40,771 bases of DNA from Escherichia phage BUCT789, in the sequence record PQ999132.1; one strand, 5' to 3'. The position numbers were made by a program, and so were the translations under genes. Shown piece after piece: positions 597 through 39,754 of this stretch (within the stretch, counting starts at the first letter, position 1; every line of letters begins with the position of its first letter). The notes under the pieces were generated by a model. It saw only the letters and a program-made list of their open reading frames with translations, had not been told where the DNA came from and did not search any database.

Positions 597-2855
597 CTAT
601 TCCAAATCTTCCTCGGTCGCTATCAGCATCTCATTCGGTTCGTATATCGTCTTCGGTCTTAATCTGTCCCCCATCTTTTCAGGTATCCGGTATGTGCCTG
701 GTATAACTTCACCGTTAACATCGCACCCGAGCATCAACTCACCGTCTTTCAGCATCTTCTCAAGATGGTGGTTGGTGATGGCGTGGTCCCCCGAGTTCGC
801 CACTATCTGCCGTTGGGTGAAACCTCGTCCGGTGTCGTCTGACTGTTGCAGGTCTTCCAACGCGGCAAGTATTGATTCCTTACGCCCTTCATCCTTCCCA
901 CGTTTTACCGCGTTCTTTACGTTTTCTTTACCTTCTTTCGTCAGCCCTTCTTCCCGCTCTTTCTCCTCGTCAGTCTTGAACGGCTCGAAGCCCCACGGCA
1001 TCAGTACAAGCGCCTTGTGTGGTTCTGGCAGGTCGAGGTTTACGATTGTGCCATATTCCTCTGTGCTACCGAGGAACTCAACCGCGCGGTACTCTTTCGG
1101 CGGCGGCGCTTCACGGAACTGTACCGACTCCAGCACCATGCCAACCGTCTTCTGTTGAGGCCCATGCTTAAATTTCGAGTGGTATACGTTTATCTGGCGG
1201 TCGGTAGCGCGCTCAATTGTCAGCTCCACATCAACACCGGCATACAGCGCCCCGCTACCACGGGCTTTCTTTCCACCCTTAGGCGTATGGTGGACGACAC
1301 CCACAGCGGCTTTAGTTGCGTCGCGTACTTTTTTAAGGATGGCGATAACTTTACCCATGCCAATTGCAGTTGATGAACTGTTCTCGTCGAACTTGTCAAT
1401 TGTCAGGGCCAGCGTCTGGTTGAGGGTATCGAACGCGACCATACCAATAGGCTCGTCCCCTGCAGCTTCACGCATCCTGCGGATTAGCGCGGGGATTTTT
1501 TTATCACCATGCGCGGCGAGCACCTCACCCATATCAATGACATGTACGTAATCTTTACCTTCCTCGCCATATTTAGCCGCGAGTGCATCTATACGTGTGC
1601 GGGTAGCTGCGCCGCCCTCACCGTCGATATAAAAATGGTGGCAACGCTGCGTATCAGCTCCCGCAAACCGGTATCCGGCGGCGCTCAGGTACATCATCCC
1701 CAGCGTATAGAACGATTTGTACGTGCCGGATTCCCCAACAATATCCCAGATGCAATCTGACGGCATGTACCCCTCAACGACGAAATCAGCCTTTACCGGT
1801 TCAGGTAGCTCGTCCTCTTCTGAGTCATCATCGTCTTCCAGGTCGTCGAGGCTGCATGAAACAGATTCACGCACACCCCATCCGATAGCCTCGGCGACTT
1901 CACTGAACGGCAGCCCGGTCGCATCACACGCGTATTTCCACACTTCTTTCGGGGGCATTCCTTCGGTCGCGGCAATGTCGGTGTCGTGAATCATGGTTAC
2001 GTTCGGCGCTTCGTATCCCTCGCGCGGGAAACATAACAGGAAGTCGTCCGGGCGTGGTGTCGGGTCGCTGTAGTTTTCTGCGTGTTCTGGCGTAGCTGGC
2101 ATCTTAAGGCCACGCGGCGTCATGATGCCGCCGTACTCGAATGCCAGTGCTTCAAACGCATCTGTAAACGCGGTGCGCAGTTCTTCCGGTATCTGGTAAT
2201 CAGATGCGCTGCTGATGTCAACGGCTGGGACGCCTTCCAGTAACTCATCAGGGTCAATCAGGTCGTTGCGGCGCGACCAGATAACGGTAGCGCCGACAGG
2301 AGGCAAGTACATCGGCTGCGAAAGAGTGAACCCGCTGCGGTCGGCGCCCATGCCTTTGAAGAAGTGTTCCAGTAACCCATGACGAACGCGGATGATGTCA
2401 CCGCCTTCAACCGGGCTGGCCAGCGGCATGACGACACGAAAGCGCGGTGACTCATCTGTATGTGACGCCGTGGTATACAGGCACATCGCCCGGCGGCTAC
2501 GCTTAACCAGGCGCACCGCTTCTTGATACTCTTCCGGTGTTGCACTGTCGAAGTCCAGATACGCCAGCGACGATTTGCTTACAGACGCGTCACAGCGATA
2601 GAAGAAGCCTTTACGCGCTTGCTTAAAGTCACCGGTTTCCGGGTCTTTTACGGTGCTGTGCGTAGAGTCGCACGCGGCTGTGATATAGCCGGGGGCGGTC
2701 TTCGGGTTAATCCCGTCGCGAACGGCATCGAGCGGCTGAATTAACTCTTTCAGGTCGTCCAGTGTTGCCGTGTGTGTGGTTCTGACGTTTATATCCTTTT
2801 TCTCTGCCCGCGCGTTGCGACGTGACCACGAGTAGGATAAAATTACATCGGACAT
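597..2855 (-). CDS. DNA primase/helicase (RepA-like RecA-fold ATPase with N-terminal primase-like domain)
   Basis: 752 aa; Walker A GESGTYKS in the C-terminal half; large N-terminal domain; ends in EEDLE. Confidence 0.75.
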   Translation of the reverse strand: MSDVILSYSWSRRNARAEKKDINVRTTHTATLDDLKELIQPLDAVRDGINPKTAPGYITAACDSTHSTVKDPETGDFKQARKGFFYRCDASVSKSSLAYLDFDSATPEEYQEAVRLVKRSRRAMCLYTTASHTDESPRFRVVMPLASPVEGGDIIRVRHGLLEHFFKGMGADRSGFTLSQPMYLPPVGATVIWSRRNDLIDPDELLEGVPAVDISSASDYQIPEELRTAFTDAFEALAFEYGGIMTPRGLKMPATPEHAENYSDPTPRPDDFLLCFPREGYEAPNVTMIHDTDIAATEGMPPKEVWKYACDATGLPFSEVAEAIGWGVRESVSCSLDDLEDDDDSEEDELPEPVKADFVVEGYMPSDCIWDIVGESGTYKSFYTLGMMYLSAAGYRFAGADTQRCHHFYIDGEGGAATRTRIDALAAKYGEEGKDYVHVIDMGEVLAAHGDKKIPALIRRMREAAGDEPIGMVAFDTLNQTLALTIDKFDENSSSTAIGMGKVIAILKKVRDATKAAVGVVHHTPKGGKKARGSGALYAGVDVELTIERATDRQINVYHSKFKHGPQQKTVGMVLESVQFREAPPPKEYRAVEFLGSTEEYGTIVNLDLPEPHKALVLMPWGFEPFKTDEEKEREEGLTKEGKENVKNAVKRGKDEGRKESILAALEDLQQSDDTGRGFTQRQIVANSGDHAITNHHLEKMLKDGELMLGCDVNGEVIPGTYRIPEKMGDRLRPKTIYEPNEMLIATEEDLE

Positions 2856-2913
2856 GTTGTATTTCCTTCAGCAAGTAATTTGGCCTCGGCGTTCACCGCG
2901 TCGGGGCTTTCTT

Positions 2914-3147
2914 TTATTCCAGGTCTTCTAAAGTAGCGGTCATTCCGCGAACTTCAGCAACAGCACTATATTTCCCGCCAACATTCTTCACGACACCGGA
3001 TTTAACCAGTACCTTCAACGACCCTTCAATAATGGCGGAACTATAGTACCTAAAATAACTACGGCGCAAGTCCATAACGCTGCACGACCCTTTTTTACGG
3101 GTTAATGAAACGACTGCCGTAAATACGCGGGACTGGAACTCGGTCAT
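2914..3147 (-). CDS. hypothetical protein (77 aa)
   Basis: ORF overlaps the upstream gene stop by 4 nt (coupled); C-terminus LEDLE. Confidence 0.55.
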   Translation of the reverse strand: MTEFQSRVFTAVVSLTRKKGSCSVMDLRRSYFRYYSSAIIEGSLKVLVKSGVVKNVGGKYSAVAEVRGMTATLEDLE

Positions 3148-3347
3148 TTTACATTCTCCTTAATCCACGCTTCCACTTTCTCCGGGTCGAAAGTACCCGG
3201 CTGCCGGCGGCCCATAATACGGATACAACAATCCGGGAACTTCCCACTCTTTAACCAGTTATTCAGCGTGCGACGGGTAACCCCGATACGCTCGGCTACT
3301 TCATTCTGTGTCATTCTCAAATCCCCATTATCAGTTAACGAAAACAA
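3144..3347 (-). CDS. AlpA/excisionase-like HTH DNA-binding protein
   Basis: Motif MTQNEVAERIGVTRRTLNNWLKSGKFP; start may instead be the internal ATG at 3314, which has a GGGGA RBS. Confidence 0.65.
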   Translation of the reverse strand: MFSLTDNGDLRMTQNEVAERIGVTRRTLNNWLKSGKFPDCCIRIMGRRQPGTFDPEKVEAWIKENVK

Positions 3348-3748
3348 GTATACATTGCGAATAATGGGAAATCAAACATAATCGCACCTATTGACATTAT
3401 GAAAATCTTCGTTTAAGGTGCTTCTGTATCTTAGTTACTTTGATTCTTGTTCACCTTGTAAAACCCGCCGAAAACGAGCGCCCAACGCGAAGTGTTAGGC
3501 GGCAGTTTACTGAACATTCGAATTATCGTAACTTTCCTTCCTAAGTATCTCCGGTTGCCCTGGGCAAGCTCTATTCTCATCGACGGCATATCTCTTAAGT
3601 ATCTGATTTTCTTAATGTGCCGTAGATTCGCAACCGTAAAAATGTAACGATTAGTGGGCAGGCTTAAGGCCTGCCCTTTAGTTACCAAGTAATAAGAATA
3701 AAGGCACAACCCTCACTAAAGAACCACAACGGCAACGTAACTTTTCTC

Positions 3749-3777
3749 TTGCACACCCCAACATAATAGGATACTAT
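3749..3777 (+). promoter_or_regulatory. promoter, TTGCAC-N17-TACTAT with conserved spacer ATAATAGG
   Basis: TTGCAC 3749-3754, TACTAT 3772-3777; conserved leader TTATCGAAACGAG then RBS GAGGAG; near-identical copies at 5188-5216 and 22864-22892. Confidence 0.55.
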
Positions 3778-3811
3778 TCACTTATCGAAACGAGACAGAG
3801 GAGTGAGGGTT

Positions 3812-4003
3812 ATGTTTAAACGTGGTCAGTTGGCTAAAACGAAGCGAGGCGAACAGTACGTAATAGTGTTGCAGGACGAGAACGAGTATGACGAGGATAA
3901 GCTGGTTGACGTATGGGGTCTGGTAAGAAAGAAACCCGGGTTCGCCTTACGCGATAATCTGAAACTCATCGGCAACAATTTTAAATTCAAAGGGGTGAAG
4001 TGA
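3812..4003 (+). CDS. hypothetical protein
   Basis: ATG 3812 with GAGGAG RBS; track ORF 3803..4003 uses an upstream GTG. Confidence 0.6.
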   Translation: MFKRGQLAKTKRGEQYVIVLQDENEYDEDKLVDVWGLVRKKPGFALRDNLKLIGNNFKFKGVK

Positions 4004-4257
4004 TGGAAGAATTAATTTGTATTGAATCCAGCCAGGATGTGCAGGATTGGTTTGTTAAAGGTAACAGATATTCGTCCGGAGTATATTCCGACGGCCGTCG
4101 ATATGTTTTAGACGAAGACGGTGATGAATGGGATTTAAATGACGATGTAAGAGAAACTTTAACCGTTAGCAGGGTCAATGCTGTTTCTGCCTCATTCACA
4201 ACGGCATCGAATCATGATGCTCGTGCCGACGACTCTGAGGGAGGTTGCCGTGAATAA
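4003..4257 (+). CDS. acidic hypothetical protein
   Basis: ATG overlaps the upstream stop (TGATG); D/E-rich product. Confidence 0.6.
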   Translation: MEELICIESSQDVQDWFVKGNRYSSGVYSDGRRYVLDEDGDEWDLNDDVRETLTVSRVNAVSASFTTASNHDARADDSEGGCRE

Positions 4258-4305
4258 TTACCCGTTTATTTTAATAGTCAGCGCCGTTTATGTGGTGCAT
4301 GCGTT

Positions 4306-4539
4306 ATGGGGGCCGGTATGAGAAAACACATAATAAAGGTAGACCATCTGGACGGAGTTAAATTGCCGACGAATAAAGTAGAAACGTGGTGTGGGGCCAC
4401 TCCATCGTACGGTGAATGGCTGTTCCAGGATGCTCAACACGCCTTAATTGCTGTAGAAAACGGATTCAGGCAAGAGCCTTGCGCACAGTGTTTATCCGCT
4501 ATCGCCCAGATCGCAACTCAGGCGTTAAGTGAGGACTAA
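4306..4539 (+). CDS. hypothetical protein
   Basis: 77-aa ORF; alternative ATG at 4318. Confidence 0.55.
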   Translation: MGAGMRKHIIKVDHLDGVKLPTNKVETWCGATPSYGEWLFQDAQHALIAVENGFRQEPCAQCLSAIAQIATQALSED

Positions 4540-4542
4540 GTT

Positions 4543-4686
4543 ATGAGAGAAGCATTCGAACGGTGGGCCGTCGTCGAGGGTCTGCCGGTTAACAAGGGTT
4601 CGAAGAAAGAGTACCTGAACGTTAAGACGCGTCTCGCGTGGCGGGCGTGGAAAGCTGGTGTGTTGTTTATCGCGAATCGGAGGTGA
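4543..4686 (+). CDS. small hypothetical protein (47 aa)
   Basis: ATG 4543 with GAGGA RBS; fills the gap between flanking genes; stop 3 nt before the next ATG. Confidence 0.4.
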   Translation: MREAFERWAVVEGLPVNKGSKKEYLNVKTRLAWRAWKAGVLFIANRR

Positions 4687-4689
4687 TTT

Positions 4690-4875
4690 ATGGGTGAGTG
4701 GATTAAGTGTAGTGAGCGGATGCCTGAGCCTTATGAATACGTTCTTGTAACTGATTGTTTTGTTGGCTGTGAGGTTATGCGTGTTAATTCAGATGGCTAC
4801 TGGGGGCCTGCAAAGAGTTTATATCACGGTGATATAACGCACTGGATGCCGTTACCTGAGCCGCCGGAGGTGTGA
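4690..4875 (+). CDS. DUF551-like small phage protein
   Basis: 61 aa with EW...PE...VLV...HWMPLPEPPE pattern recalled for DUF551; not verified by search. Confidence 0.55.
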   Translation: MGEWIKCSERMPEPYEYVLVTDCFVGCEVMRVNSDGYWGPAKSLYHGDITHWMPLPEPPEV

Positions 4876-5009
4876 TGTTCAATAGTTTGGGATTTTACTG
4901 AGTGACTTACGCTGCTACACAGCAGCGTACAACTTTAGATTAGTGTCGTCAAAAAGCGACACTTTCACCAAACGCAACAATAGAAGCGACTATTGCAGGA
5001 GATGCAACA

Positions 5010-5180
5010 ATGAAACTGAATGACATCGTAACCTGGACTGGTAGAAACGGAGAAAAGCGATTCGGGCTTATTGTTGCGTCAGACGGCAACAAGTACCGTG
5101 TTATGCGATGGCGTCAGTGGGCACGACGCCCGAGGTACTACTGGATTCGTGGCGAACGATTATCTTTAAAACACCAATAA
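5010..5180 (+). CDS. small hypothetical protein (56 aa)
   Basis: ATG 5010 preceded by AGGAG; lies upstream of the 5188 promoter copy. Confidence 0.45.
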   Translation: MKLNDIVTWTGRNGEKRFGLIVASDGNKYRVMRWRQWARRPRYYWIRGERLSLKHQ

Positions 5181-5187
5181 AATTTAC

Positions 5188-5216
5188 TTGCACACACAGA
5201 TATAATAGACTACTAT
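5188..5216 (+). promoter_or_regulatory. promoter, TTGCAC-N17-TACTAT (second copy)
   Basis: TTGCAC 5188-5193, TACTAT 5211-5216; same spacer core and TTATCGAAACGAG leader as 3749-3777. Confidence 0.55.
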
Positions 5217-5245
5217 TCAGTTATCGAAACGAGAGGAGAGAGAAG

Positions 5246-5383
5246 ATGGGCTGGTACGGTAGCTGGGCATTAGGTGAACTGGTAGACGCTTACGAAATAA
5301 TGGGTAGCACTTCGGTATGCGACGGTGACACTAAATCGCTGCTAGTCGGGGTCGATGAGAAAAGGGGTGAAGACGATGAATAA
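5246..5383 (+). CDS. small hypothetical protein (45 aa)
   Basis: ATG 5246 after RBS GAGAGGAGAG; the upstream part of track ORF 5108..5383 is promoter sequence. Confidence 0.45.
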   Translation: MGWYGSWALGELVDAYEIMGSTSVCDGDTKSLLVGVDEKRGEDDE

Positions 5384-5531
5384 TTTCGTGGTGCAAGCAA
5401 TGTACGCTGAGGAAATGGCAAAAAGTATGTTAGAGCAAACATTACATTTCGCTAAGCTGCAAGGGTTCGACGTACAGACAGTAGGCGACGAAATAGTATT
5501 GACCGAGAAGTCGGAGAACGGCGATGAGTAA
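5376..5531 (+). CDS. small hypothetical protein (51 aa)
   Basis: ATG 5376 with AAGGGG RBS; overlaps neighbours at both ends. Confidence 0.4.
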   Translation: MNNFVVQAMYAEEMAKSMLEQTLHFAKLQGFDVQTVGDEIVLTEKSENGDE

Positions 5532-5883
5532 CAATGACGCAGTAATCGAGTTCCTGTTTAACCAACTACAGCAGCAGCTAACGAACAACCCATACAAGCA
5601 ACAGTGTGAAGACCTGGCGCATGAGGTGCAGTCACTTAAGAATCAGTTACGCGATATGTCGGAGCTGGTGGATGCGCTACCGGGGACGATAACGTTAATG
5701 AACGGGAAATCTAGTTGCCGTAAAGAAGACGCGCAGGAATGCGAGCATGATTGGTTGCATAGTAAACACAAAAGCGGCTTCGTTTGCTTTAAGTGTGGGG
5801 CGCGCGAAGAGTGTGAACACGATTGGTACTTTTACGATAAAGGCGCGTCGATGATGTGCAAGAAATGCGGGCTGAAGAAATGA
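5524..5883 (+). CDS. zinc-ribbon protein with two CEHDW...CxKCG units
   Basis: 119 aa; ECEHDW...CFKCG and ECEHDW...CKKCG repeats; paralogous unit in 8369..8608. Confidence 0.65.
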   Translation: MSNNDAVIEFLFNQLQQQLTNNPYKQQCEDLAHEVQSLKNQLRDMSELVDALPGTITLMNGKSSCRKEDAQECEHDWLHSKHKSGFVCFKCGAREECEHDWYFYDKGASMMCKKCGLKK

Positions 5884-6083
5884 CCAGCATCCTCTTTATC
5901 TGGGTACTGTCCGCAGGCCAGATGCAACTGGCGGCAGCAGAAACGTTTTATTCGATGGAGGCGTGCCAGTCAGCGGCACGCGCCGCAGAGAACGCGCACT
6001 TCCTGTTTCAGGGCGACAAGCCCAACGATTCAGAGGTACGCGCTATCTGCTCACCTAAGCGACTTGGTAAACAGGAGAGATAA
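5880..6083 (+). CDS. small protein with N-terminal hydrophobic segment
   Basis: ATG 5880 overlaps upstream stop (ATGA); N-terminus MTSILFIWVLSAG. Confidence 0.5.
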   Translation: MTSILFIWVLSAGQMQLAAAETFYSMEACQSAARAAENAHFLFQGDKPNDSEVRAICSPKRLGKQER

Positions 6084-6376
6084 TGTCTCTTGCAACTGAC
6101 ATCCTGAAACGAAGCGGCCTTGCGCCGCTGTCACCGAGAGCGAAGACACGTATACACAAGCGTCGCCGTAACGTGCTGTACCCAGAGATACAAGAACGGC
6201 GTAAAGCTATCCGCGCCTGTGGATTCCAGAACGGAAAGGCCGTGAATCTCGGTGAGTTTAAAACACAGGAACGCGCAGCTATCGCTAATCGGCTATTTAA
6301 TTACTGGAAATCGCTGGGGTACGATGATATTCCGACGAAACCGCAGAGACGGCAATACATCTGGAGACACAAATAA
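6083..6376 (+). CDS. basic hypothetical protein (97 aa)
   Basis: ORF directly after the previous stop; K/R-rich. Confidence 0.55.
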   Translation: MSLATDILKRSGLAPLSPRAKTRIHKRRRNVLYPEIQERRKAIRACGFQNGKAVNLGEFKTQERAAIANRLFNYWKSLGYDDIPTKPQRRQYIWRHK

Positions 6377-6385
6377 ACCGTTATT

Positions 6386-6446
6386 AGGATAATTCCTACC
6401 CGTGGTATCCTCCAGTTACTGCATACTTAATACGCACCTGGAGGAT
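6386..6446 (+). promoter_or_regulatory. alternative RNA hairpins over the holin ribosome-binding site
   Basis: Perfect 9-bp inverted repeat atcctccag (6407-6415) / ctggaggat (6438-6446), the latter containing the holin SD; competing aggata (6386-6391) / tatcct (6406-6411) pairing. Confidence 0.45.
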
Positions 6447-6451
6447 TCATC

Positions 6452-6760
6452 TTGGATAAATTTACTGAAACAGTGACGGGCTGGCTTCTCGCTGCCGCAC
6501 TCGCCGGAGGGGTCATCGGACTACGACAACATAAGTCCGTTATTTCTGGCCCTATCGACGGCTTCTGCTTCATCGCTACTGGTTTCGCCTGCGCCGTATT
6601 TGGCGCCCCTCTTGCAGCTCAATGGTTCGGTATCACGGGCGACCGTGAAATCGCTGGCCTGGGCTTTATCATCGCTATTCTCTGGATGCCTATTTATTCC
6701 CGTCTCTCCGGTATTGTTGCCGGAGAATACATCTCACGTCGAGGAGGCCCGGATGAATGA
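6452..6760 (+). CDS. holin (class I-like, three predicted TMDs)
   Basis: TTG start 7 nt after GGAGGA; three hydrophobic segments; directly upstream of the endolysin. Confidence 0.65.
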   Translation: MDKFTETVTGWLLAAALAGGVIGLRQHKSVISGPIDGFCFIATGFACAVFGAPLAAQWFGITGDREIAGLGFIIAILWMPIYSRLSGIVAGEYISRRGGPDE

Positions 6761-7645: not shown

Positions 7646-7651
7646 TACCAA

Positions 7652-9714: not shown

Positions 9715-9808
9715 GTACATCCCGCCCAATCCCCTTATATAATCCCTTTAGACGCGTAGGGCGCGTCTGGTGCGCTCTGATGGTCAGACGCATATGCAAG
9801 GGGATTTT

Positions 9809-10354
9809 ATGAAGCTGAAACTCAAGCAGCCATCGCCAGAGGTGGTGCAAGCTGCACATGAAGAAGCTGTTAGCGCAAACCGTCGACGTAATCGACCGCG
9901 TGGCAAACAGAGCCTTTATCAATCATCCCGTAATTCCGCCGCGTTGTGGGACCCGGACTATTGTGACGCGCTAATCGAGTTCTTCGATCGCACGTCATGG
10001 GAACTCGTCCCTACATCTAAGGGTGACGAACGCCCGCTGATTCAGGATAAACCCCCATCACTGGCCCGCTTCGCCTTACATATCGGCGTTACTATCCCGA
10101 TTATTAAGCTGTGGCTGCGTGAGATTCCCGCATTTGCAGAAGCCTGGGAGACCGCACAGGCACTTGAAGAGGCTTATTTCACTGAGACAGGGGCCGCAGG
10201 TATCTCTGCTACGTTCGCTGCGGCTAAGCTGGGCCTCGGCAAAGAGAAACCGGTTGAACCCACCGAAGAAACGGCACCGACTGAGATTATTTTCAGTGTT
10301 GCGGAGCCTGTAGGTAAAATTGTAACAACGAATATGGGCGAGGTAGAGGAATGA
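9809..10354 (+). CDS. terminase small subunit (putative)
   Basis: ATG 9809 with AAGGGG RBS; basic N-terminus; stop overlaps the large-subunit ATG. Confidence 0.6.
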   Translation: MKLKLKQPSPEVVQAAHEEAVSANRRRNRPRGKQSLYQSSRNSAALWDPDYCDALIEFFDRTSWELVPTSKGDERPLIQDKPPSLARFALHIGVTIPIIKLWLREIPAFAEAWETAQALEEAYFTETGAAGISATFAAAKLGLGKEKPVEPTEETAPTEIIFSVAEPVGKIVTTNMGEVEE

Positions 10355-11612: not shown

Positions 11613-13106
11613 ATGGTTTCCGCAAACATTAACGCAGGGCAAGGGCAGAACGTTAAAACCCGCCACCGCCAGTACGAAGAGTATTTCCCTAAGTGGCAGA
11701 AGGTGCGACATGCGCTTTCTGGCGACCTGACATCGTATCTACGTGACGTCGGTAAGAATGAGCCGGACCCGGTTTACGGTCGCCAGCGTCAGGCTGAATA
11801 CGAAGCGGGGGCAATTTGCTACAACTTCACCAAGCGAACGCTTTCCGGCATGGTAGGCAGCGTAATGCGCAAAGACCCTGAGATGAATATTCCGTCTCAG
11901 ATGGAATACCTGACAACTAACTGCGATGGGTCTGGTGTCGGCCTGTGGCAGCACGCACAAGATACCCTGTATGAGATTGATGCCGTTGGTCGCGGTGGTT
12001 TGCTGGTGGACGCTCCCGCGGTAGAAGTCGCCACTATGGCGGAGCAAAACGAGGGCTTACTTAACCCGACAATCGCTTTCTACACCGCGGAGAACATCAT
12101 CAACTGGCGTCTTCAGCGCGTCGGTTCGGTCAATCGTGTGGTTATGGTCGTATTGCGCGAAGAATACGAGTACACCGACGGGACTGATGAGTTCAGCCCC
12201 AACTACGGCGAGCAATACCGCGTCCTTGATATTTTCGAAGGCCAGTATCGCCAGCGTCTGTACCGCTTTAACCAGAAAGGCGCACTGGTGGAAGGTGGCT
12301 ATATCGAAATATTCCCGAAACTCGGTAATATTCCGGTCGGGGTGATTCCGTTCACGTTCATCGGCGCGGGAAATAACGACTCAACCCCTGACGATGCCCC
12401 TTTGTTGCCGTTGGCTGAACTTAATATAGGGCACTTCCGTAACAGCGCAGACAATGAGGAGTCCAGCTTCGTTGTAGGCCAGCCAACTCTGTTCATCGCC
12501 CCTGGTGAGAACATGAGCATGGAGCAATGGAAAGAAGCTAACCCCCACGGCGTGCGCATGGGGTCGCGTTCGGGTCATAACATCGGCTACGGCGGCAATG
12601 CGTTTCTGGTCCAGGCAGGAGAGAACAACCTCGCCAAACAGAACATGCTGGATAAAGAGAACCAGGCAATCCAGATTGGTGCACAGCTTATTACCCCGAC
12701 GCAGCAAATCACCGCGGAATCGGCACGCCTGCAACGCGGCGCTGATACGTCTGTTATGGCAACAATCGCACGTAACGTAAGCATGGCGTATACCGATGCG
12801 CTGAAATGGGTTGCGGGGATGCTCGGACTTAGTGACGGTACTGAAATTGAGTTCAAACTGAATATGGAGTTCTTCCTGCAACCTATGACCGCCCAGGACC
12901 GCGCTCAGTGGATGGCGGATATTAACGCGGGCCTGTTACCGGCTACCGCTTACTATGCTGCGTTGCGTAAGGCGGGGGTAACTGACTGGACCGACGAGGA
13001 TATTCAGAATGCTATCGAAGATGCACCTCTGCCGTTAGGTGCTGCTTCTCAGGTAGCAGGAGAGATTCCGCAGTCGGCGCAGCAAAAAGACCCCACCCAG
13101 CAGTAA
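11613..13106 (+). CDS. portal protein
   Basis: 497 aa ORF directly after terminase and before the head morphogenesis gene. Confidence 0.8.
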   Translation: MVSANINAGQGQNVKTRHRQYEEYFPKWQKVRHALSGDLTSYLRDVGKNEPDPVYGRQRQAEYEAGAICYNFTKRTLSGMVGSVMRKDPEMNIPSQMEYLTTNCDGSGVGLWQHAQDTLYEIDAVGRGGLLVDAPAVEVATMAEQNEGLLNPTIAFYTAENIINWRLQRVGSVNRVVMVVLREEYEYTDGTDEFSPNYGEQYRVLDIFEGQYRQRLYRFNQKGALVEGGYIEIFPKLGNIPVGVIPFTFIGAGNNDSTPDDAPLLPLAELNIGHFRNSADNEESSFVVGQPTLFIAPGENMSMEQWKEANPHGVRMGSRSGHNIGYGGNAFLVQAGENNLAKQNMLDKENQAIQIGAQLITPTQQITAESARLQRGADTSVMATIARNVSMAYTDALKWVAGMLGLSDGTEIEFKLNMEFFLQPMTAQDRAQWMADINAGLLPATAYYAALRKAGVTDWTDEDIQNAIEDAPLPLGAASQVAGEIPQSAQQKDPTQQ

Positions 13107-32711: not shown

Positions 32712-32717
32712 AACTAA

Positions 32718-32737: not shown

Positions 32738-32739
32738 CT

Positions 32740-34304: not shown

Positions 34305-34495
34305 CCCTTAACGTAGAGCACCAGCTCTTTACGCCCGAACGCCGTAACGTTACCCGTTACATCTTCGATAACCAGTTTACCGTTCGACTCGACGAACACC
34401 GTATCAACGGCAACCGGACGTCGGGTCTTAACGTTGAAAATCATGTCGCCCGGTACGATGTCACGTGCGGGTTTGCGGTCATATTCGTGTTTCAT
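34301..34495 (-). CDS. hypothetical protein (64 aa)
   Basis: Stop overlaps the helicase ATG (ATGA). Confidence 0.5.
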   Translation of the reverse strand: MKHEYDRKPARDIVPGDMIFNVKTRRPVAVDTVFVESNGKLVIEDVTGNVTAFGRKELVLYVKG

Positions 34496-34516
34496 TTCTC
34501 AATTCCTTATAGTTAA

Positions 34517-34530
34517 GGCCCCGAAGGGCC
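34517..34530 (-). terminator. intra-operon hairpin (attenuator-like)
   Basis: ggccc-cgaa-gggcc; moderately T-rich downstream on the minus strand. Confidence 0.35.
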
Positions 34531-34534
34531 TGTA

Positions 34535-34789
34535 TTAGTTAGATAATTCGCCTTGAACTTGCTTAATAAGTTCTCTGGCCGTTGTGAAGTCTACGGACAG
34601 CCCTTTAGCGACGTCTTCCGCAAGCACCTTGTGGCCAACTGACCCGAAGCCCAGGATACGGTTTACTTCCGAAACCTTCATATACCATGAGTAATTAACT
34701 GACGCCCCTGTGTATTTACCGATACGAACAGATGAATCGATTGAACCAATAATCATGGTGTTTACTGACAGTTGAAGTTCGATAGCCAT
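34535..34789 (-). CDS. hypothetical protein (84 aa)
   Basis: ATG 34789 immediately follows the VRR-NUC stop. Confidence 0.5.
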   Translation of the reverse strand: MAIELQLSVNTMIIGSIDSSVRIGKYTGASVNYSWYMKVSEVNRILGFGSVGHKVLAEDVAKGLSVDFTTARELIKQVQGELSN

Positions 34790-34790
34790 T

Positions 34791-35105
34791 TTATAATTCC
34801 TTATATTGTTGGGGTATGTGCTTACTATAATAGTCTGCTATTAGGGTGTCAATCTGTTTTATCGAACCAACGACAAAAACATTTGCGCCACGTTTGCGCA
34901 TCCGCTCATGCTCACGTAGCTGGTGGGGGTCAGGCTTCGTGTTTTCGTCTTTCTTAACCTCGACGAACCAGACGACGCCGCCGGGGAGAATTGCCAGCAG
35001 GTCGGGGGCGCCGGAACGCCCCTCGTAGGAAAGTTTACGAACGAGGCCACCAAGGGCCTCGAATCGCTCCTTTGCATATTTCTGTATTTTGCCTTCCGGG
35101 GTCAT
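34791..35105 (-). CDS. VRR-NUC domain nuclease
   Basis: Motif GAPDLLAILPGGVVWFVEVK; start taken as ATG 35105 overlapping the upstream small ORF stop; track lists TTG 35120. Confidence 0.7.
   Translation of the reverse strand: MTPEGKIQKYAKERFEALGGLVRKLSYEGRSGAPDLLAILPGGVVWFVEVKKDENTKPDPHQLREHERMRKRGANVFVVGSIKQIDTLIADYYSKHIPQQYKEL
34824..34852 (-). promoter_or_regulatory. sigma70-like promoter, TTGACA-N17-TATAGT (minus strand), inside the 3' end of the VRR-NUC gene
   Basis: + strand tgtcaa 34847-34852 and actata 34824-34829, 17-nt spacer. Confidence 0.45.
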
Positions 35106-35254
35106 GAGCGCAGAACCCAAGTAAGGAAAGCCCCGCCCAGAACGGCAACACCGACAAAATTAAAGAACAGGCCATAGCAGAACATCGCGGCTATTCCCGC
35201 ACCGAGTAGAAGTGCGAGCATGGTTACTATCGTCCAAAATACAAACATTGTCAT
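35102..35254 (-). CDS. small hydrophobic membrane protein (50 aa; absent from the ORF track)
   Basis: GAGGGG RBS; product MTMFVFWTIVTMLALLLGAGIAAMFCYGLFFNFVGVAVLGGAFLTWVLRS; stop overlaps the VRR-NUC ATG. Confidence 0.45.
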   Translation of the reverse strand: MTMFVFWTIVTMLALLLGAGIAAMFCYGLFFNFVGVAVLGGAFLTWVLRS

Positions 35255-35336
35255 AATACGCACCCCTCACGTTTCGTGTGCTCAATCCCGCAGCGCGGAC
35301 AGATTCGACAGTCTTCTTCATAGAACCAGTAGATTT

Positions 35337-35468
35337 TCATTCCAGCACCCACAGATAAATTGCGATGAACATACCTAATACGGCTACAATCATGCCGTAT
35401 TGGCCCTCGTGACAGTAGACACCGGCGGCAAATCCCGCCAGTACTGCGATAATCAGTTTACTTAGCAT
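35337..35468 (-). CDS. small hydrophobic membrane peptide (43 aa; absent from the ORF track)
   Basis: ATG 35468 overlaps the 3' end of the polymerase gene; product MLSKLIIAVLAGFAAGVYCHEGQYGMIVAVLGMFIAIYLWVLE. Confidence 0.4.
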   Translation of the reverse strand: MLSKLIIAVLAGFAAGVYCHEGQYGMIVAVLGMFIAIYLWVLE

Positions 35469-37731
35469 AACGGTACACCTCTTCCCCAGCCCATGTTAAC
35501 GGGAACCCTTCGGCCCACTCAGGTAATGAGCATAGCAGGTCACCCATCTCTTTAACCGTGTACTCTGGCGTGTCTGGCGTTTCGGCAACACATTCGTCAT
35601 GTACGTGGAGTACAATTGGGTAGCCCGCCGCCTCGACCGTCAGGAGTCCGTTAACCAGTAAATCACGGCACAACGCCTGGATGATGTTTTCACACAATTT
35701 TCCGCCGTGGGTGTACAAAGTTGTCCACTGGCGGGTGGTCTGATTTTCACCCTGATACTTAATGCGGACGTTAGTAGTAACGCGCCCATCCTCGTCAGTC
35801 TCTTTAGTGACGCTTAAGCCTATGCCAGGGTAGGACATGATGCGCCCAGACGGCAGTTCCACGCACAACCACCAACCCGGAACCGGATTACCGTGGTTGT
35901 CTTTTTCTTTGGTACGCCAGATGCGGATGGCTCTGTCGCCGTTAAGGCGTACTCGGGCCCCCGCCCAAAACTCTCGTCCCGGATTTCTGATGGCGGCTAT
36001 CACCGAATCCTTAAGGTCATTCCAGAATTTCACTGTTTCCGGATGGGCTTCCCGCCACATGCGCTTAATGGCGTCACAGGTGCGCCAGACTTCTTTAGGC
36101 AGCACATAAGAGGCCCGTTCATCTTTTTTACCAGGCTTTGGCGGGCGTTTAGCCTCCTGAATTCTGGCCCATTCGTAGCCACGGGCGGTAGCCGCCCAAA
36201 TGTGGTCGGGGAACGTGCCCCGCATTGTCTCTGTCATTTTAAAGAGGTCCAGCCCGTAAGTTTTAGCCATAGTCATAAAAGCCCCTACGCCCCCCTCGTA
36301 GCCGAGGCCGAGTTCGCAACATTTCCCGACCTGACGTAGGTCCTTACGGGTGGCTTTTAGTTCTACGGGGTCCATGCCAAACATCTTGCCCGCGGTGGCG
36401 CAATAAATATCAATCCCTGCGCGGAAGGTCTCAAGCGCGGATGTCTCCCCCGCGGTCCAGGCCAACCCGCGCCCTTCTACGTTTGAGTAGTCGGCAACGA
36501 GCAACTTATTACCCTTTTCAGGGATGATGCAACTGCGAACAGTCGAGGCTGTCAGCTTGGATACGTCGAAACGACGGTGCGCCCGACCCTTTAGCAGCAG
36601 ATTGATGCCGAACGATAGGGGGTTGAGACGACGGTTCCAGTCTTCGTCGGACTCCCACGGCTGGCGTACAAGTTTCTTCTCCTCGTTAGTCGGGTCATCA
36701 TGATAGTACCCGCGCGACAGGTTCTGCGGCTGGAACCCTTTACCCGCAAATCGTAAAGTGCGCTTTGCCCCACCGTACTGGATGCAACCGCGGCGGCGGC
36801 CGTCTTTGGACCGTCCTAGCAGGAGCGGTTTGTATTTTGTCGACGCCGTGGAGGCCGCGCCGAGGCGCATCTCAATGATTGTGCGCGCATCGTCAGGTAA
36901 GTCGTCGTCCTCTAGCAAACCTTCGAGCGTTGCTTTCTGCGCATTATAGATATTGTAGGCCGGTGCCAGCTCCCGAAGGATTGGCAGGAAGTCTTTACCC
37001 GTTAGCTTCCCGCCAAATTTAGCCCTGGCCTCGTTTTTTAGCTCTTGCTTGTGGCGTTCAACTGCTGCTACCGCCGCCTCAGCAAGAGCCGCATCAACAA
37101 AGAAGCCTCGGTCGTTGATTAACTGGTCAAGTTCAAGTACACGGTCCTCGAAATCGGAGTTACCCCAACGTGGCAGCTTATGGAAGACTTCACGCATCGC
37201 TGTGATGTCGCTCACGGCGTACTTGATGAACAGCGCCCATTCGTCCGGGTGCGTTTCGGCGGTGTAGCGGCGGATTTTATAGTTCTTCGGGGTTGGTTTG
37301 GAGAAACGCTGAATCAGAGCCTTGCCACGTTTATCTTTCGCGTTGTCGGCGGATACGCCCAGCACTTCGCATAATGCGTCAAGTGAACCCGGCAGCGCGT
37401 GGCGAAACGCCCAAATCATAGTGTCAATGGTGTTGCTGACCGGAATATCGAAGCCCCAGCAGTTCTTCATGATGAGCCTATCGAAAAGTCCACCGTTATG
37501 CCACACCATCTTAATGCGACTGTTTGGCTTCACCAGACGGCGTAACGCGCGGTGTAAATCTCCCGGCATGTCGCTGCCGTCAGTGCAGTCCCATACCTGA
37601 ACAGGCTCGTCATCAAAAGCATAGGTGCAGATGAGCACTTCGGTAGTCGGGTGTTCGGCGTAAGCATAGGAGCCGACTTTCTTCAAATCGGCTTCGGAGA
37701 AGGTTTCAAAGTCTAAGAACAGATAACTCAT
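35458..37731 (-). CDS. family A DNA polymerase with N-terminal 3'-5' exonuclease domain
   Basis: 757 aa; exo motif LDFETFSE; motif A DYSNVEGRGLAW, motif B RQVGKCCELGLGYEGG, motif C LHVHDE. Confidence 0.9.
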   Translation of the reverse strand: MSYLFLDFETFSEADLKKVGSYAYAEHPTTEVLICTYAFDDEPVQVWDCTDGSDMPGDLHRALRRLVKPNSRIKMVWHNGGLFDRLIMKNCWGFDIPVSNTIDTMIWAFRHALPGSLDALCEVLGVSADNAKDKRGKALIQRFSKPTPKNYKIRRYTAETHPDEWALFIKYAVSDITAMREVFHKLPRWGNSDFEDRVLELDQLINDRGFFVDAALAEAAVAAVERHKQELKNEARAKFGGKLTGKDFLPILRELAPAYNIYNAQKATLEGLLEDDDLPDDARTIIEMRLGAASTASTKYKPLLLGRSKDGRRRGCIQYGGAKRTLRFAGKGFQPQNLSRGYYHDDPTNEEKKLVRQPWESDEDWNRRLNPLSFGINLLLKGRAHRRFDVSKLTASTVRSCIIPEKGNKLLVADYSNVEGRGLAWTAGETSALETFRAGIDIYCATAGKMFGMDPVELKATRKDLRQVGKCCELGLGYEGGVGAFMTMAKTYGLDLFKMTETMRGTFPDHIWAATARGYEWARIQEAKRPPKPGKKDERASYVLPKEVWRTCDAIKRMWREAHPETVKFWNDLKDSVIAAIRNPGREFWAGARVRLNGDRAIRIWRTKEKDNHGNPVPGWWLCVELPSGRIMSYPGIGLSVTKETDEDGRVTTNVRIKYQGENQTTRQWTTLYTHGGKLCENIIQALCRDLLVNGLLTVEAAGYPIVLHVHDECVAETPDTPEYTVKEMGDLLCSLPEWAEGFPLTWAGEEVYRYAK

Positions 37732-37751
37732 TATTTTGACCCTTAGTAAAA

Positions 37752-37769
37752 AGGCCCAATAAAGGGCCT
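37752..37769 (-). terminator. rho-independent terminator/attenuator between SSB-like and polymerase genes
   Basis: aggccc-aataaa-gggcct; minus strand continues with TTTTTACT. Confidence 0.5.
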
Positions 37770-37789
37770 TAATTAAACAGATTCAGATA

Positions 37790-38422
37790 TTAACCACGGC
37801 GACGACGTTCGCGGCGCGGTGCTTCATCTTCTTCGTCGTCTTCCAGGTCGTCGGTGCTCGCTACTACACTGGAGCCGCCGAAGCGTTTACCTTCGCCCAT
37901 ATACTTGATGCCGAGGATGGTAGCGCACAGGTTTTTCCAATCTTTGTGCCACCATAATTCTACAGATACGTTTGCGATACATCCGCTATATACCTGCTCG
38001 CCTTCTATTTCTTTCCCGTCGATGTTGAAATCAGGCTCGGTTTGTTTTTCACCTTTAGCCGATGTCATAATCACCGGTTGGCGGTTGTTTGTAGCGCGGA
38101 AATACAGACCTTCTTCAAAATCCTCAATCGGATTATCTCGCATTGCCAGGTCACGGACGCAGCATTTGTCTGCGTGGTGGTCTGCACCGTAGTTGGCCTT
38201 CATCCATTTCTCGGCAGCAGCGGCCCCGATTGCATCTGTTACAACTTCCAACGCGGTGTCGTAAAGCGCATCAATTTGAGGATGGTCAGGCTGCATAAGA
38301 ACAGTAACCTGATACTTACCCTTAATCAGTTTACCGGTTTTCTTGTCCTCAGAGTCGGCAGCACGTTCAAATACGTTAACCCATGCAGTGTTTACTTTAC
38401 GCAGATTCAGTTTAATACCCAT
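37790..38422 (-). CDS. single-strand DNA-binding protein candidate (DUF2815-like) with acidic C-terminal tail
   Basis: 210 aa; C-terminus STDDLEDDEEDEAPRRERRRRG; sits next to the Cas4-like nuclease. Confidence 0.5.
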   Translation of the reverse strand: MGIKLNLRKVNTAWVNVFERAADSEDKKTGKLIKGKYQVTVLMQPDHPQIDALYDTALEVVTDAIGAAAAEKWMKANYGADHHADKCCVRDLAMRDNPIEDFEEGLYFRATNNRQPVIMTSAKGEKQTEPDFNIDGKEIEGEQVYSGCIANVSVELWWHKDWKNLCATILGIKYMGEGKRFGGSSVVASTDDLEDDEEDEAPRRERRRRG

Positions 38423-38479
38423 CGTGATTTCTCGCTTTTCAGTTTCGTTTACTCCGGGAGCTGCCCGGCCAGTGATTTA

Positions 38480-38508
38480 ACTATAATAGTTAGCTATTCA
38501 GGAGTCAA
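38480..38508 (-). promoter_or_regulatory. sigma70-like promoter, TTGACT-N17-TATAGT (minus strand)
   Basis: + strand agtcaa 38503-38508 and actata 38480-38485, 17-nt spacer. Confidence 0.5.
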
Positions 38509-38512
38509 CACT

Positions 38513-39754
38513 TTATTCTAAATCTTCTTCACTAACCTGATTCCACCCAGGCCGTTTGTCGTCTGCCGTTGCGACACATGGTGCGCCGGGCTTACGGGTA
38601 ATGAAGTCTTTCAGTTCTTCCTCCGGTATTACTTTAACCGCTTCGGCCGGCGTCATAAGAACTACCTTTTGCAGCATAGTGCCGTACTTCTCAAATACTG
38701 CATCGGTATCTTTCCACGCACGATTACCAGGACGACCTTCAACCAGCTTATACCCCGGCACTTTCTTACCGGAATGCAAAGCGGCTGCCATAGCTTTCTC
38801 AACCTTGTCGATGTGCTGGCGCAACAACGGCAACTTCTCGTACTCAGCTACGAGTTGCTCTGGTGTCAGTTCCAGTGCAAAGTCGCCCTCCAGTTCTTCC
38901 GCCAGTACCGAGTTAACGGTTTTTGTACGCGTGGCGCACTGTTCCGAGAACCGACACCACTGACATCCATCGACCGACGGCCTGAAGTCCGACGCTTTCA
39001 GGTTCTTTTTACCACGGAAATACGCATCAAGCGCCAACAGAGCTCGTTTCTGCGCGAACTTAGCGAACAGTTCCAGACCCTCGACCGAGATGTCCCATTC
39101 CGAAGCACCCCCGGCGTACGGCTGGAAAATAACCAGACGAACAACTGTGATGTTATAACGTCTCTTGAGTCGTCGATAAACACCGAGAGCGTAAAGCATA
39201 AGCTGCTTGTTTTCTTTCGCTTCAACACGATGTCGTCCTGTTTTAAGGTCGCCGATAATGAGCATGTGCTCGTCGGTGTTAACCAGTTCCTGTACGGCAA
39301 CAAGGTCGGCGGTTCCGAACGTCTCGACACCTTCATAACCTGGATGCAATACCTCAGTAAGATTGACGCGCATTTCCAGCTTGGCGTAAGTAGCTACGTC
39401 GATAATCGGTTTGCTGTAGTCGGTGTACTTGCGCACCTGCTCAATCATGTCGGCCGTAATCAGTACCGCCCCTTTCATCGGGCTGATTAGCGCCTTAATC
39501 TGGCCTTTACCCTCATCCAGCACATAAGCACCGACTTCGCGCTCTAACGGCAACGCAGTTCCGCGAATATAAGCGTTGAGATGTACCTCAGCTATGGTGT
39601 GGCACGCAGTACCTGTAACAGCCGCTTTACCTGACGTGTTAGGAATATCTTTTTCACAGGCCAGTGACGCCGCGCAGCTTAGCCACTTTTTAGCTCCCGA
39701 CGGTGACAGTAAGGCGTGTACATCGTTATTTCCGCCGCGTTCTTTTAGTTTCAT
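38513..39754 (-). CDS. Cas4/RecB-like PD-(D/E)XK exonuclease with Fe-S cysteines (DUF2800-like)
   Basis: N-terminal Cys plus C-terminal CQWCRFSEQC; IGDLKTGR...EAK nuclease core; ends SEEDLE; start ATG 39754 (track lists 39775). Confidence 0.7.
   Translation of the reverse strand: MKLKERGGNNDVHALLSPSGAKKWLSCAASLACEKDIPNTSGKAAVTGTACHTIAEVHLNAYIRGTALPLEREVGAYVLDEGKGQIKALISPMKGAVLITADMIEQVRKYTDYSKPIIDVATYAKLEMRVNLTEVLHPGYEGVETFGTADLVAVQELVNTDEHMLIIGDLKTGRHRVEAKENKQLMLYALGVYRRLKRRYNITVVRLVIFQPYAGGASEWDISVEGLELFAKFAQKRALLALDAYFRGKKNLKASDFRPSVDGCQWCRFSEQCATRTKTVNSVLAEELEGDFALELTPEQLVAEYEKLPLLRQHIDKVEKAMAAALHSGKKVPGYKLVEGRPGNRAWKDTDAVFEKYGTMLQKVVLMTPAEAVKVIPEEELKDFITRKPGAPCVATADDKRPGWNQVSEEDLE

Follow-up and report, generated by a model that had tools for sequence, protein, structure and literature searches.

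The C-terminal tip of Escherichia coli SSB (...DDDIPF) is an interaction hub, in which an acidic run with hydrophobic residues makes up a portable docking peptide used in DNA metabolism. In phage T7, the tail of gp2.5 interacts with gp5 and with the helicase and is required to stimulate gp6 (PMC4124056), and the tails of gp4 bind basic patches of gp5 (PMC12593628). Crystal structures of gp2.5 and DUF2815 proteins show the C-terminus placed in the concave sheet (seven-stranded in DUF2815) of a neighboring molecule (PMC5686142). The genes for a resection nuclease and an ssDNA-annealing SSB are adjacent in what has been called the "duf2800-gp2.5-polA module" (PMC8093625).

The window analyzed here (40,771 nucleotides, Escherichia phage BUCT789) is a Kagunavirus-like (Guernseyvirinae) siphophage genome. 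As in T7, a gp2.5-class SSB and a primase-helicase accompany a family-A polymerase, there is an acidic tail with one key hydrophobic residue, and the polymerase lacks it (Table 1). The nuclease matches Pfam DUF2800 (PF10926) with 223 bits (cutoff, 21) as well as PDDEXK_1, and residues C27, C264, C267, and C273 are invariant in both of our alignments (A1 and A2); by this profile and the four cysteines, it is a predicted DUF2800/Cas4-like nuclease. The SSB lies above the gathering score of PF10991 (44.3 bits against a cutoff of 26, residues 5-199) and matches PHROG 112 ("Gp2.5-like ssDNA binding and annealing protein") at 3.8e-32, but it is too divergent for a direct sequence match to the PDB. 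The primase-helicase was identified by Pfam AAA_25 (5e-20) and PHROG 3228, "replicative helicase-primase" (2e-300). No Pfam match was found for the 77-aa protein, for which AlphaFold2 predicts a winged helix-turn-helix in residues 1-62 (pLDDT above 90); its top fold matches are winged-helix domains such as those of MotA, LexA, IclR, and RPA32C, all of them weak (E>1e-3).

Table 1. Coordinates of the replication genes and motif copies in the window
Feature	Position	Strand	Basis or remark
Primase-helicase gene, 752 aa	597..2855	-	Translation; AAA_25 helicase domain at aa 349-528
ATEEDLE C-terminal tail of primase-helicase	600..620 (EDLE = 600..611)	-	Translation
Internal motif copy CSLDDLEDDDDSEEDE, aa 334-349	1809..1856	-	Acidic linker just before helicase domain
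77-aa winged-helix protein (predicted fold), PHROG 5169	2914..3147	-	Translation; immediately upstream of primase-helicase
EDLE tail of 77-aa protein	2917..2928	-	On an 11-residue linker predicted to be disordered
Family-A DNA polymerase, candidate receptor without tail	35458..37731	-	Pfam DNA_pol_A
gp2.5-like ssDNA-binding/annealing protein (DUF2815 / Enc34_ssDNA-bd)	37790..38422	-	Pfam, PHROG
Arg-rich extreme C-terminus of SSB (RRERRRRG)	37793..37816	-	Translation; motif followed by APRRERRRRG
SSB motif copy STDDLEDDEEDE, aa 189-200	37823..37858	-	Just after OB fold
DUF2800 / Cas4-like PD-(D/E)XK nuclease (predicted), 413 aa, four invariant Cys	38513..39754	-	Pfam
EDLE tail of nuclease	38516..38527	-	Translation

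A sequence-only reading of this DNA had pointed out that the primase-helicase, the 77-aa protein, and the Cas4-like nuclease all terminate in EDLE, and the translations agree (...IATEEDLE, ...TATLEDLE, and ...VSEEDLE, respectively). EDLE is the sole C-terminal tetrapeptide common to three ORFs in the six-frame set. The nuclease tail falls outside the Pfam model, since the latter stops at residue 402. AlphaFold2 does not clearly call it disordered (residues 401-410 have a pLDDT of 77 and residues 411-413 one of 63, and a short helix is predicted at 409-412), unlike the tail of the 77-aa protein, where residues 67-77 fall below 50. The span of 597-39754 given in that reading takes in nearly the whole window only because the genome is permuted; in phage hz69 (97% identical) the four genes are packed in ~6 kb. 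Several other proteins of the window have acidic C-terminal residues without the motif.

Composition predicts 1.4e-5 triples with any C-terminal 4-mer in common among 70 gene-like ORFs, and sampling the 4-mers of the proteome itself gives P=5e-4. There are exactly five [DE]DL[DE] sites in the proteome against about one expected (P=0.002), all of them confined to four replication proteins: three are the tails, one follows directly on the OB fold of the SSB, and one lies in the linker of the primase-helicase. The first four had been listed before, while the linker copy (CSLDDLEDDDD, aa 334-344) had been overlooked. At the DNA level, the degenerate pattern GARGAYYTNGARTAR has three matches and none in 100 shuffles. 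These figures bear on the view that the tails have no common function, being the product of chance, paralogous C-terminal segments, or a DNA element (recombination boundary, terminator, promoter, or the like) located where genes end. Recombination at gene ends is indeed frequent here, given that close phages exchange the N-terminal part of the helicase and have a mosaic slot upstream of it. Chance, however, has a probability of at most 5e-4, and the EDLE codons differ from tail to tail (gaa gat ttg gaa, gaa gac ctg gaa, and gaa gat tta gaa), so that the tails are not a DNA repeat. The three stop codons are followed by unrelated sequences, namely a hairpin terminator in one case, an intergenic spacer in another, and a promoter-like site in the third, and BLASTP detected no similarity between the 77-aa protein and the C-terminal region of the helicase. 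In addition, homologs vary synonymously while the residues stay fixed, and the tail is conserved between lineages at 26-45% protein identity. We regard this explanation as very improbable, and the codon and conservation data already contradict it.

Conservation was followed in 80 related loci, with nucleases 43-96% identical and helicases down to 26%. In both of these proteins, the tail retains [VA][ST][DE][DE]-D-L plus 0-3 residues; the Asp and Leu are unchanged despite synonymous codon changes, and the linkers are variable. Positions -1 to -4 are constrained, with S/T preferred at -3, and the entropy at -5 to -8 is at least 2 bits. Helicases end in [ST][DE][DE/G]DL plus one or two residues, their invariant D and L being spelled by two Asp and six Leu codons, and in the nucleases the same pair is fixed through GAT/GAC and TTA/TTG/CTG/CTA. 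It is the D-L core that is conserved rather than the EDLE tetrapeptide originally proposed: sister lineages swap the final Glu for S, A, KD, NS, SNE, and others, and the real unit is [VA]-[ST]-[DE]-[DE]-D-L with 0-3 further residues.

Close homologs retain the tail, whereas its absence from them would have spoken against the sequence-only reading. EEDLE is present in 118 of 120 nucleases that are 93-97% identical (the exceptions being one EDDLE and one ending in EEDL), among which the three preceding residues vary, and none of 13 representatives at 40-58% identity departs from D411 or L412. The 77-aa protein ends in EDLE in 27 of 30 full-length close homologs (EELE in two, EDLA in one), in ..ATPEDLE in Jersey-type homologs (68-73% identical), and in RDLE/HDLE in a divergent 91/106-aa homolog with a longer linker. 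A scan for [DE]DL.{0,3}$ over the 10,542 six-frame ORFs of 84 loci and the window (85 sources in all) retrieved 74 nucleases, 64 helicases, and the 77-aa protein 25 times, with only 10 further hits, seven of which are a further small protein encoded between SSB and Pol and ending in TATDEDLE. The motif is kept at all five positions in lineages whose carriers are only 26-50% identical. It has the attributes of a short linear motif, i.e., a conserved core, variable flanks, and recurrence in carriers with unrelated folds, and it is nonrandom and under purifying selection at the protein level.

The SSB copy was first described as an internal acidic stretch with DDLE near the C-terminus. It is indeed a true copy, located at the family-wide tail position of DUF2815, but the extreme C-terminus is poly-Arg and not acidic. 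At the same position, sister lineages have ATDSDLDD, CSDEDLDN, ATDDDLGD, or ANDDDLDD, and distant DUF2815 members with solved structures have D[DE]FxD[LI]. The Arg-rich end is conserved in the clade and expanded to alternating acidic and basic blocks in sister lineages. With poly-Arg behind the motif, this SSB does not literally fit the acidic extreme C-terminus known from T7; on the helicase, in contrast, a net-acidic extreme C-terminus of the T7 type is found (...ATEEDLE). Leu followed by 0-3 residues takes the place of the terminal Phe of T7. In T7, the rule is an aromatic residue with a free carboxylate at the C-terminus; this does not carry over directly to the present clade, in which the hydrophobic position is not the last one and the SSB has its copy inside the chain. 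The helicase linker copy is retained in helicases that are only 26-33% identical (CTLEDLEDE, CDEEDLDDE, CTDEDLDDD, CQDEDLMDE, and CTDADLDNE), although it could have a structural role instead of docking.

Over the DUF2800-DUF2815-PolA module at large, the tail differs from lineage to lineage and is common to several proteins of a genome: DEV, DEL, W-containing, DDFxDL, DYPD, or, in T7, DF (gp2.5 ...EDGDF and gp4 ...NDTDF). In Chi-like phages, DEV ends the primase, the nuclease, the SSB, and the small terminase (TerS) alike, and in the relatives L174 and L175 all four proteins end in D[DE]L. A W-containing tail is found on all carriers of L181, DYPD is common to the nuclease and SSB of L184 and L186, and AEDDFD[KE]L occurs in both proteins of a Staphylococcus phage. 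In one related contig (L186), a DUF2815 SSB ends literally in DIPF. In the distant module, the nuclease and SSB of one genome both carry D[DE]FxD[IVL]...[ED]DL[VL], and there are pairs, for instance, that both end in AEAFV or both in EGLV; the permutation p for this covariation is <=1e-3, a value inflated by relatedness, as the statistics ignore shared ancestry. The nuclease-SSB pair is the universal core of tail sharing across the surveyed lineages. Carriers number at least four different proteins in this genome and up to six in Chi-like phages, where, as in some environmental phages, the same tail is also on the small terminase and a Dcm methylase. PolA had no tail in any of the loci in which its C-terminus was inspected (Guernseyvirinae, Dhillonvirus, L057, Staphylococcus phiSa2wa, APSE-7, Klebsiella phage Soft, and T7), the C-termini being ...RYAK/RYRK/RYKK.

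Judging from these sequence patterns, the EDLE ends are probably one short linear motif copied from the tail of the gp2.5-like SSB and acting as a common docking handle. Selection and sharing, as supposed by analogy with T7 gp2.5 and gp4, are borne out by the conservation in homologs and the covariation within genomes, while binding is what we infer. The motif core would be small-[S/T]-acid-acid-Asp-Leu(-x0-3) on flexible acidic segments. Because the SSB has this motif right behind its OB fold, an SSB-tail look-alike would be displayed by the nuclease, by the winged-helix protein, and by the primase-helicase, the last of which has it twice, at its C-terminal end and in the linker. All these peptides may dock into a single phage-encoded acceptor site, which would tether the enzymes to SSB-coated DNA and/or the polymerase, so that they compete, or hand over, at the fork and at resected ends. 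One candidate acceptor is the DUF2815 SSB itself, since in crystals of this family the concave ssDNA-binding sheet takes the family's C-terminal segment in trans; another is the family-A polymerase, through basic patches, by analogy with T7 gp5, to which the gp4 and gp2.5 tails bind. Both could operate together.

The acceptor might instead be a host protein, for example a processivity factor, a protein that binds the tip of the host SSB, or a protease or chaperone adaptor reading a C-terminal degron. Acidic-plus-hydrophobic ends do resemble the bacterial SSB tip, DIPF itself being found in the DUF2815 SSB of the related contig L186, and the T7 polymerase recruits the host factor thioredoxin (PMC12593628). 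However, phages of the same hosts differ (DF in T7, DEV in Chi-like phages, and DL(E) in Kaguna/Jersey types), so that the tail tracks the phage lineage and not the host, which favors a phage-encoded acceptor, and a C-terminal degron could not be internal, as the copies in the SSB and the helicase linker are. Host docking thus seems quite unlikely.

A different proposal would make the acidic tail a DNA mimic acting in cis, folded onto the DNA-binding surface of its own protein and suppressing nonspecific or dsDNA binding; a common sequence would then reflect a common physical job and not a common partner. Such a role is conceivable because every carrier is a DNA-binding protein (nuclease, helicase, SSB, and winged-helix protein here, TerS and Dcm in other lineages), and the tails of T7 gp2.5 and Enc34 ORF6 compete with DNA or tune ssDNA/dsDNA discrimination (PMC5686142; PMC10359462). 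A generic polyanion, however, has no need of an invariant Asp-Leu with S/T preferred at -3, nor would it be expected that unrelated folds in one genome switch their hydrophobic residue together (V, L, W, F, or Y) from one lineage to another, and the acidic C-termini in the window that lack the motif also speak against it. We consider this mimicry unlikely.

A docking handle limited to the replisome leaves TerS and the Dcm methylase unexplained, as both bear the same tail. A tentative extension, for which we would claim rather less than even chances, is a lineage "tail code," in which one phage-encoded pocket, most simply the ssDNA groove of the SSB, reads the peptide on all enzymes working on SSB-coated DNA. 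These would comprise the nuclease, the primase-helicase, origin/regulatory winged-helix proteins, and, in some lineages, TerS and the methylase, and peptide and pocket would coevolve (DLE, DEV, DEL, W-type, DDFxDL, DYPD, and DF). If true, the replication-recombination-packaging interactome could be read from sequence and would be orthogonal between coinfecting phages.

The docking reading departs from each of the described systems. Relative to T7, the motif is also on the Cas4-like nuclease, the small winged-helix protein, and the helicase linker, it has more sequence definition through the S/T preference at -3, and in the SSB it lies inside the chain, with a poly-Arg end behind it. The Enc34 ORF6-type SSBs (PDB 5ODJ, 4JG2, and 4KLK) belong to the same Pfam family as the window SSB, and the solved members have an acidic-hydrophobic segment after the OB fold (..ADDFTTI, ..ESDFGDL); their contacts, however, are SSB-to-SSB in crystals and of unproven physiological role, whereas nuclease and helicase tails in the groove are our proposal. 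In the bacterial case, the SSB alone bears the peptide and many partners bear pockets, while here the arrangement is inverted, and so many carriers in one genome would imply a single acceptor. The neighboring genes for a resection nuclease and an annealing SSB recall the SynExo pairs (lambda Exo-Red beta, T7 gp6-gp2.5), but the nucleases of the known pairs have no copy of the annealase tail; here, both partners show the same peptide, which would imply that they compete for one site or hand over to each other there.

Guernseyvirinae, Dhillonvirus, and Chi-like phages are common phages of E. coli and Salmonella used in therapy and biocontrol, and to our knowledge their replication machinery is uncharacterized. 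A handle readable from sequence could map the binding partners in a replisome unlike that of T7, and it would extend the acidic-tail principle of T7 to a resection nuclease, small DNA-binding proteins, and, in some lineages, the terminase, hinting at a physical link among replication, recombination, and packaging. The lineage-specific covariation is, moreover, a natural data set on the coevolution of docking peptide and pocket. Finally, the DUF2800 nuclease and phage SSBs have both been reported as triggers of retron defense (bioRxiv 10.64898/2026.07.14.737667), and hence coupling between the two may matter for immune sensing.

The window is a nearly complete, permuted Kagunavirus-like siphophage genome of 40.8 kb (Guernseyvirinae), with several hundred Escherichia and Salmonella phages as relatives. 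Its tail sites are spread over positions 597 to 39754 because of the permutation; in Escherichia phage hz69, which is 97% identical to it over the replication genes, the primase-helicase, the small upstream gene, the nuclease, the gp2.5-like protein (SSB) and the polymerase all lie inside ~8 kb. A C-terminal EDLE common to three proteins had been proposed from a sequence-only reading, together with an internal acidic motif in the SSB, and the translations bear both out: the primase-helicase ends IATEEDLE, the 77-aa protein TATLEDLE and the nuclease VSEEDLE, and the SSB contains STDDLEDDEEDE followed by APRRERRRRG. In the window's six-frame ORFs, no C-terminal tetrapeptide other than EDLE is common to three of them; composition predicts 1.4e-5 such triples among 70 gene-like ORFs, and sampling tetrapeptides of the window's own proteome gives P=5e-4. 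A degenerate DNA pattern for E-D-L-E-stop matched three times in the window vs. none in 100 shuffles. Since the three copies use different codons (gat/gac for Asp, ttg/ctg/tta for Leu) and the sequences 3' of their stop codons are mutually unrelated, the repeat is at the protein level, and a repeated or regulatory DNA element at the gene ends was rejected. Two other elements adjoining these genes were read by eye, a sigma-70-like site, at a position matching an annotated promoter in phage Jersey, and a terminator-like hairpin.

Coordinates of tail-carrying genes and associated features
Feature	Source	Position	Strand	Remarks
Helicase-primase	window	597..2855	-	PHROG 3228; AAA_25 domain aa 349-528
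Nuclease	window	38513..39754	-	DUF2800 / PD-(D/E)XK; four invariant cysteines
ssDNA-binding and annealing protein (SSB)	window	37790..38422	-	DUF2815 / Enc34-type, gp2.5-like
Polymerase	window	35458..37731	-	family-A
77-aa protein	window	2914..3147	-	PHROG 5169 (function unassigned); without Pfam family
Poly-Arg stretch of SSB	window	37793..37816	-	directly after acidic motif
Sigma-70-like site	window	38470..38512	-	TTGACT, 17 nt, TATAGT; directly 3' of nuclease stop, before SSB gene
Terminator-like hairpin	window	560..596	-	GGGGC-GTTAA-GCCCC, after helicase stop codon
Small terminase (TerS)	window	9770..10354		without tail; ends GEVEE
62-67-aa protein	contigs L057-L066	~12400-12740	+	ends TATDEDLE; overlaps polymerase start
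Tailed TerS	contig L165	10581-11150
Tailed TerS	contig L168	10970-11539
Tailed TerS	contig L174	12689-13357
Tailed TerS	contig L179	18274-18834
DUF2815 SSB	metagenomic contig L186	1477-2151		ends ...DGEDIPF

EEDLE is kept in 118 of 120 close nuclease homologues (93-97% identical), the exceptions being one EDDLE and one protein ending EEDL, while the three residues before it vary. Among 13 more distant representatives (40-58% identity), whose tails were taken from a 50%-cluster search, D411 and L412 are invariant and the last residue is not. The same core was found in 80 related viral contigs, in which nuclease identity ranges from 43 to 96% and helicase identity falls to 26%: all 80 nucleases and all 80 helicases with anchorable tails have Asp-Leu within their last few residues; among the matched ORFs, it is missing from one nuclease, which ends EEDSE, and from ORFs that are truncated or fragments. 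(The related-locus searches used two narrower alignments, split from one of 42 sequences in which no stretch was sufficiently conserved.) The consensus in relatives is [VA]-[ST]-[DE]-[DE]-D-L, after which come E, S, A, KD, NS, SNE, AN and others; variability is high at positions -5 to -8, and the core is written with two codons for Asp and four to six for Leu, from both codon families. The exact tetrapeptide EDLE is thus one local form of a wider motif. The pattern [DE]DL.{0,3}$ is very specific: in 85 sources (the window and 84 loci) with 10,542 six-frame ORFs, its matches were 74 nucleases, 64 helicases, the 77-aa protein in 25 copies and ten further ORFs, of which seven are a different protein of 62-67 aa and unknown family, encoded between the SSB and the polymerase in one sub-lineage.

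Proteome-wide, there are exactly five [DE]DL[DE] sites in the window vs. ~1 expected (P=0.002), namely, the three tails, the SSB site and a copy overlooked by the first reading, CSLDDLEDDDDSEEDE, at aa 334-349 of the primase-helicase, in the acidic linker directly before the helicase domain. Both internal copies are still in place where lineages share 26-50% identity. The copy in the SSB reads ATDSDLDD, CSDEDLDN, ATDDDLGD or ANDDDLDD in sister lineages and the linker copy CTLEDLEDE, CDEEDLDDE, CTDEDLDDD, CQDEDLMDE or CTDADLDNE; the latter may be structural and not a docking site. In the same protein, the best BLASTP match to the window primase-helicase falls to 27% identity in six close Kagunavirus genomes (L007, L019, L024, L027, L032 and L037), despite which the C-terminal dozen residues NEMLTVTEEDLE are unchanged. 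Close Kagunavirus genomes may thus have exchanged the N-terminal (primase) part of this protein.

The slot upstream of the primase-helicase is mosaic, with at least six unrelated small genes in close relatives (contigs L005-L084). Within it, the DLE tail is restricted to the 77-aa protein and a divergent 91/106-aa homologue that has a longer linker and still ends RDLE or HDLE. The 77-aa protein occurs in 25 of the 80 loci, every copy ending EDLE, and 27 of its 30 close database homologues do so too (two end EELE and one EDLA). In the AlphaFold2 prediction, residues 1-62 form a winged helix-turn-helix (pLDDT >90) and the tail, residues 67-77, is disordered (pLDDT <50); a fold search with this model returned only generic winged-helix domains (E>1e-3). 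The last 13 residues of the nuclease have intermediate AlphaFold2 confidence, without a clear disorder signal. A common origin of the 77-aa protein and the C-terminal region of the helicase by paralogy was rejected for want of support, BLASTP giving only a 7-residue chance match (E=0.26).

The nuclease, SSB and polymerase belong to a module already named in the literature, duf2800-gp2.5-polA (PMC8093625), and acidic-hydrophobic ends, such as DDFEDL...DLI, are common among DUF2800 cluster representatives. In 80 distant loci, 45 ORFs have an acidic tail that ends D-[LIVMF], and 32 of them encode the nuclease or the DUF2815 SSB beside it. Tails of the two proteins are alike within a genome (DEFADVTDTGEDLV vs. 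DEFDDIAEGATADDLV; other pairs are both AEAFV or both EGLV), with p<=1e-3 against permuted genome pairings, a statistic that ignores kinship. A tail motif is shared by the nuclease and SSB in a Staphylococcus phage (AEDDFD[KE]L), APSE-7 ([DE]FDD[VL]) and contigs L184/L186 (DYPD), and by more proteins in others: the primase, nuclease, SSB and TerS of the Chi-like phage SeWh-1 (…DDEDEV, …DDEDDDEV, …DWEDEV and …VDDDEV, respectively), five proteins of Klebsiella phage Soft (DDEV, DDDV or EDDV), the helicase-primase, nuclease, SSB and TerS of L174/L175 (D[DE]L) and the primase, nuclease and SSB of L181 (a W-containing end); in T7, gp2.5 and gp4 both end DF. The polymerase had no tail at its C terminus wherever it was read. 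Tail-less DUF2800 proteins, considered as a natural control for the acceptor, are too few for a decision: one with a basic end and a radical-SAM gene adjoining in place of the SSB (its contig is only 3 kb long), two supposedly tail-less ones that turned out to have an internal DYPD matching their own SSB, and that of L185, which has a long non-acidic extension; the L185 SSB nevertheless ends DDDLL. The L186 SSB, with an internal DYPD in common with the adjoining nuclease, has a tip identical to that of bacterial SSB.

In Chi-like and related phages, the primase, nuclease and SSB have their lineage tail (DEV, DEL or DDGxDL[VL]) in common with the TerS of the same genome. In some contigs, a Dcm methylase has the end DYDLI; the contigs behind the TerS and Dcm observations include L106, L115 and L117. 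These ends hint that packaging may be linked to replication and recombination proteins.

Judged from sequence and structural models, the tail is a short linear motif: its two-residue core is invariant and its flanks vary, it recurs on unrelated folds, and its surroundings are predicted to be flexible. That several proteins per genome switch their hydrophobic residue together is hard to explain without one co-evolving acceptor. T7, Chi-like and Kaguna/Jersey phages have common hosts and different tails (DF, DEV and DL(E), respectively); an acceptor encoded by the phage is therefore more likely than one from the host. Crystal structures of Enc34 ORF6, of two other DUF2815 proteins and of T7 gp2.5 show the C-terminal segment of one molecule in the concave sheet of the next (PMC5686142). 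In T7, gp4 tails bind two basic patches of gp5 (PMC12593628), and the gp2.5 tail contacts gp5 and the helicase and is required for stimulation of the gp6 exonuclease (PMC4124056). On these precedents, we favour the tails as an SSB-tail look-alike that would serve several proteins as one docking handle; the candidate acceptors are the SSB groove and/or the polymerase. In one attractive version, the nuclease and helicase would grip an SSB at its DNA groove and unload it onto the ssDNA that they produce.

The window SSB itself differs from T7 gp2.5 and Enc34 ORF6, which end acidic: its acidic motif is followed directly by poly-Arg, expanded in sister lineages (L003, L004, L057, L065 and L084) to alternating acidic/basic blocks such as DDDDEDDKPRKSKKSKRRDDDDDEEDEKPRKRRKPRDDEDEDDDEDEAPRKRRRR. 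A PDB sequence search with the window SSB found no match; a less divergent family member from L110 matched 4JG2, 5ODJ and 4KLK. Solved DUF2815 proteins have ..ADDFTTI and ..ESDFGDL where the window SSB has STDDLEDD.

Acidic docking tails have long been known from T7, T4 and bacterial SSB. In the open-access papers and preprints searched, we found no description of a shared tail in the duf2800-gp2.5-polA module, of the defined (S/T)-acid-acid-D-L motif and its internal copies, of this motif on the Cas4-like nuclease and small winged-helix proteins, or of lineage-specific concerted tail variation across the module. The kind of element is already known; the motif, its carriers, the internal copies and the concerted variation appear to be new to the searchable literature, and the shared-tail proposal is directly testable. 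According to a 2026 preprint, a type IX retron is triggered by a DUF2800 nuclease of a BASEL phage, B14T (bioRxiv 10.64898/2026.07.14.737667), and phage SSBs have been reported in other papers as triggers of Retron-Eco8; thus, both universal tail-sharing proteins are known immune triggers.
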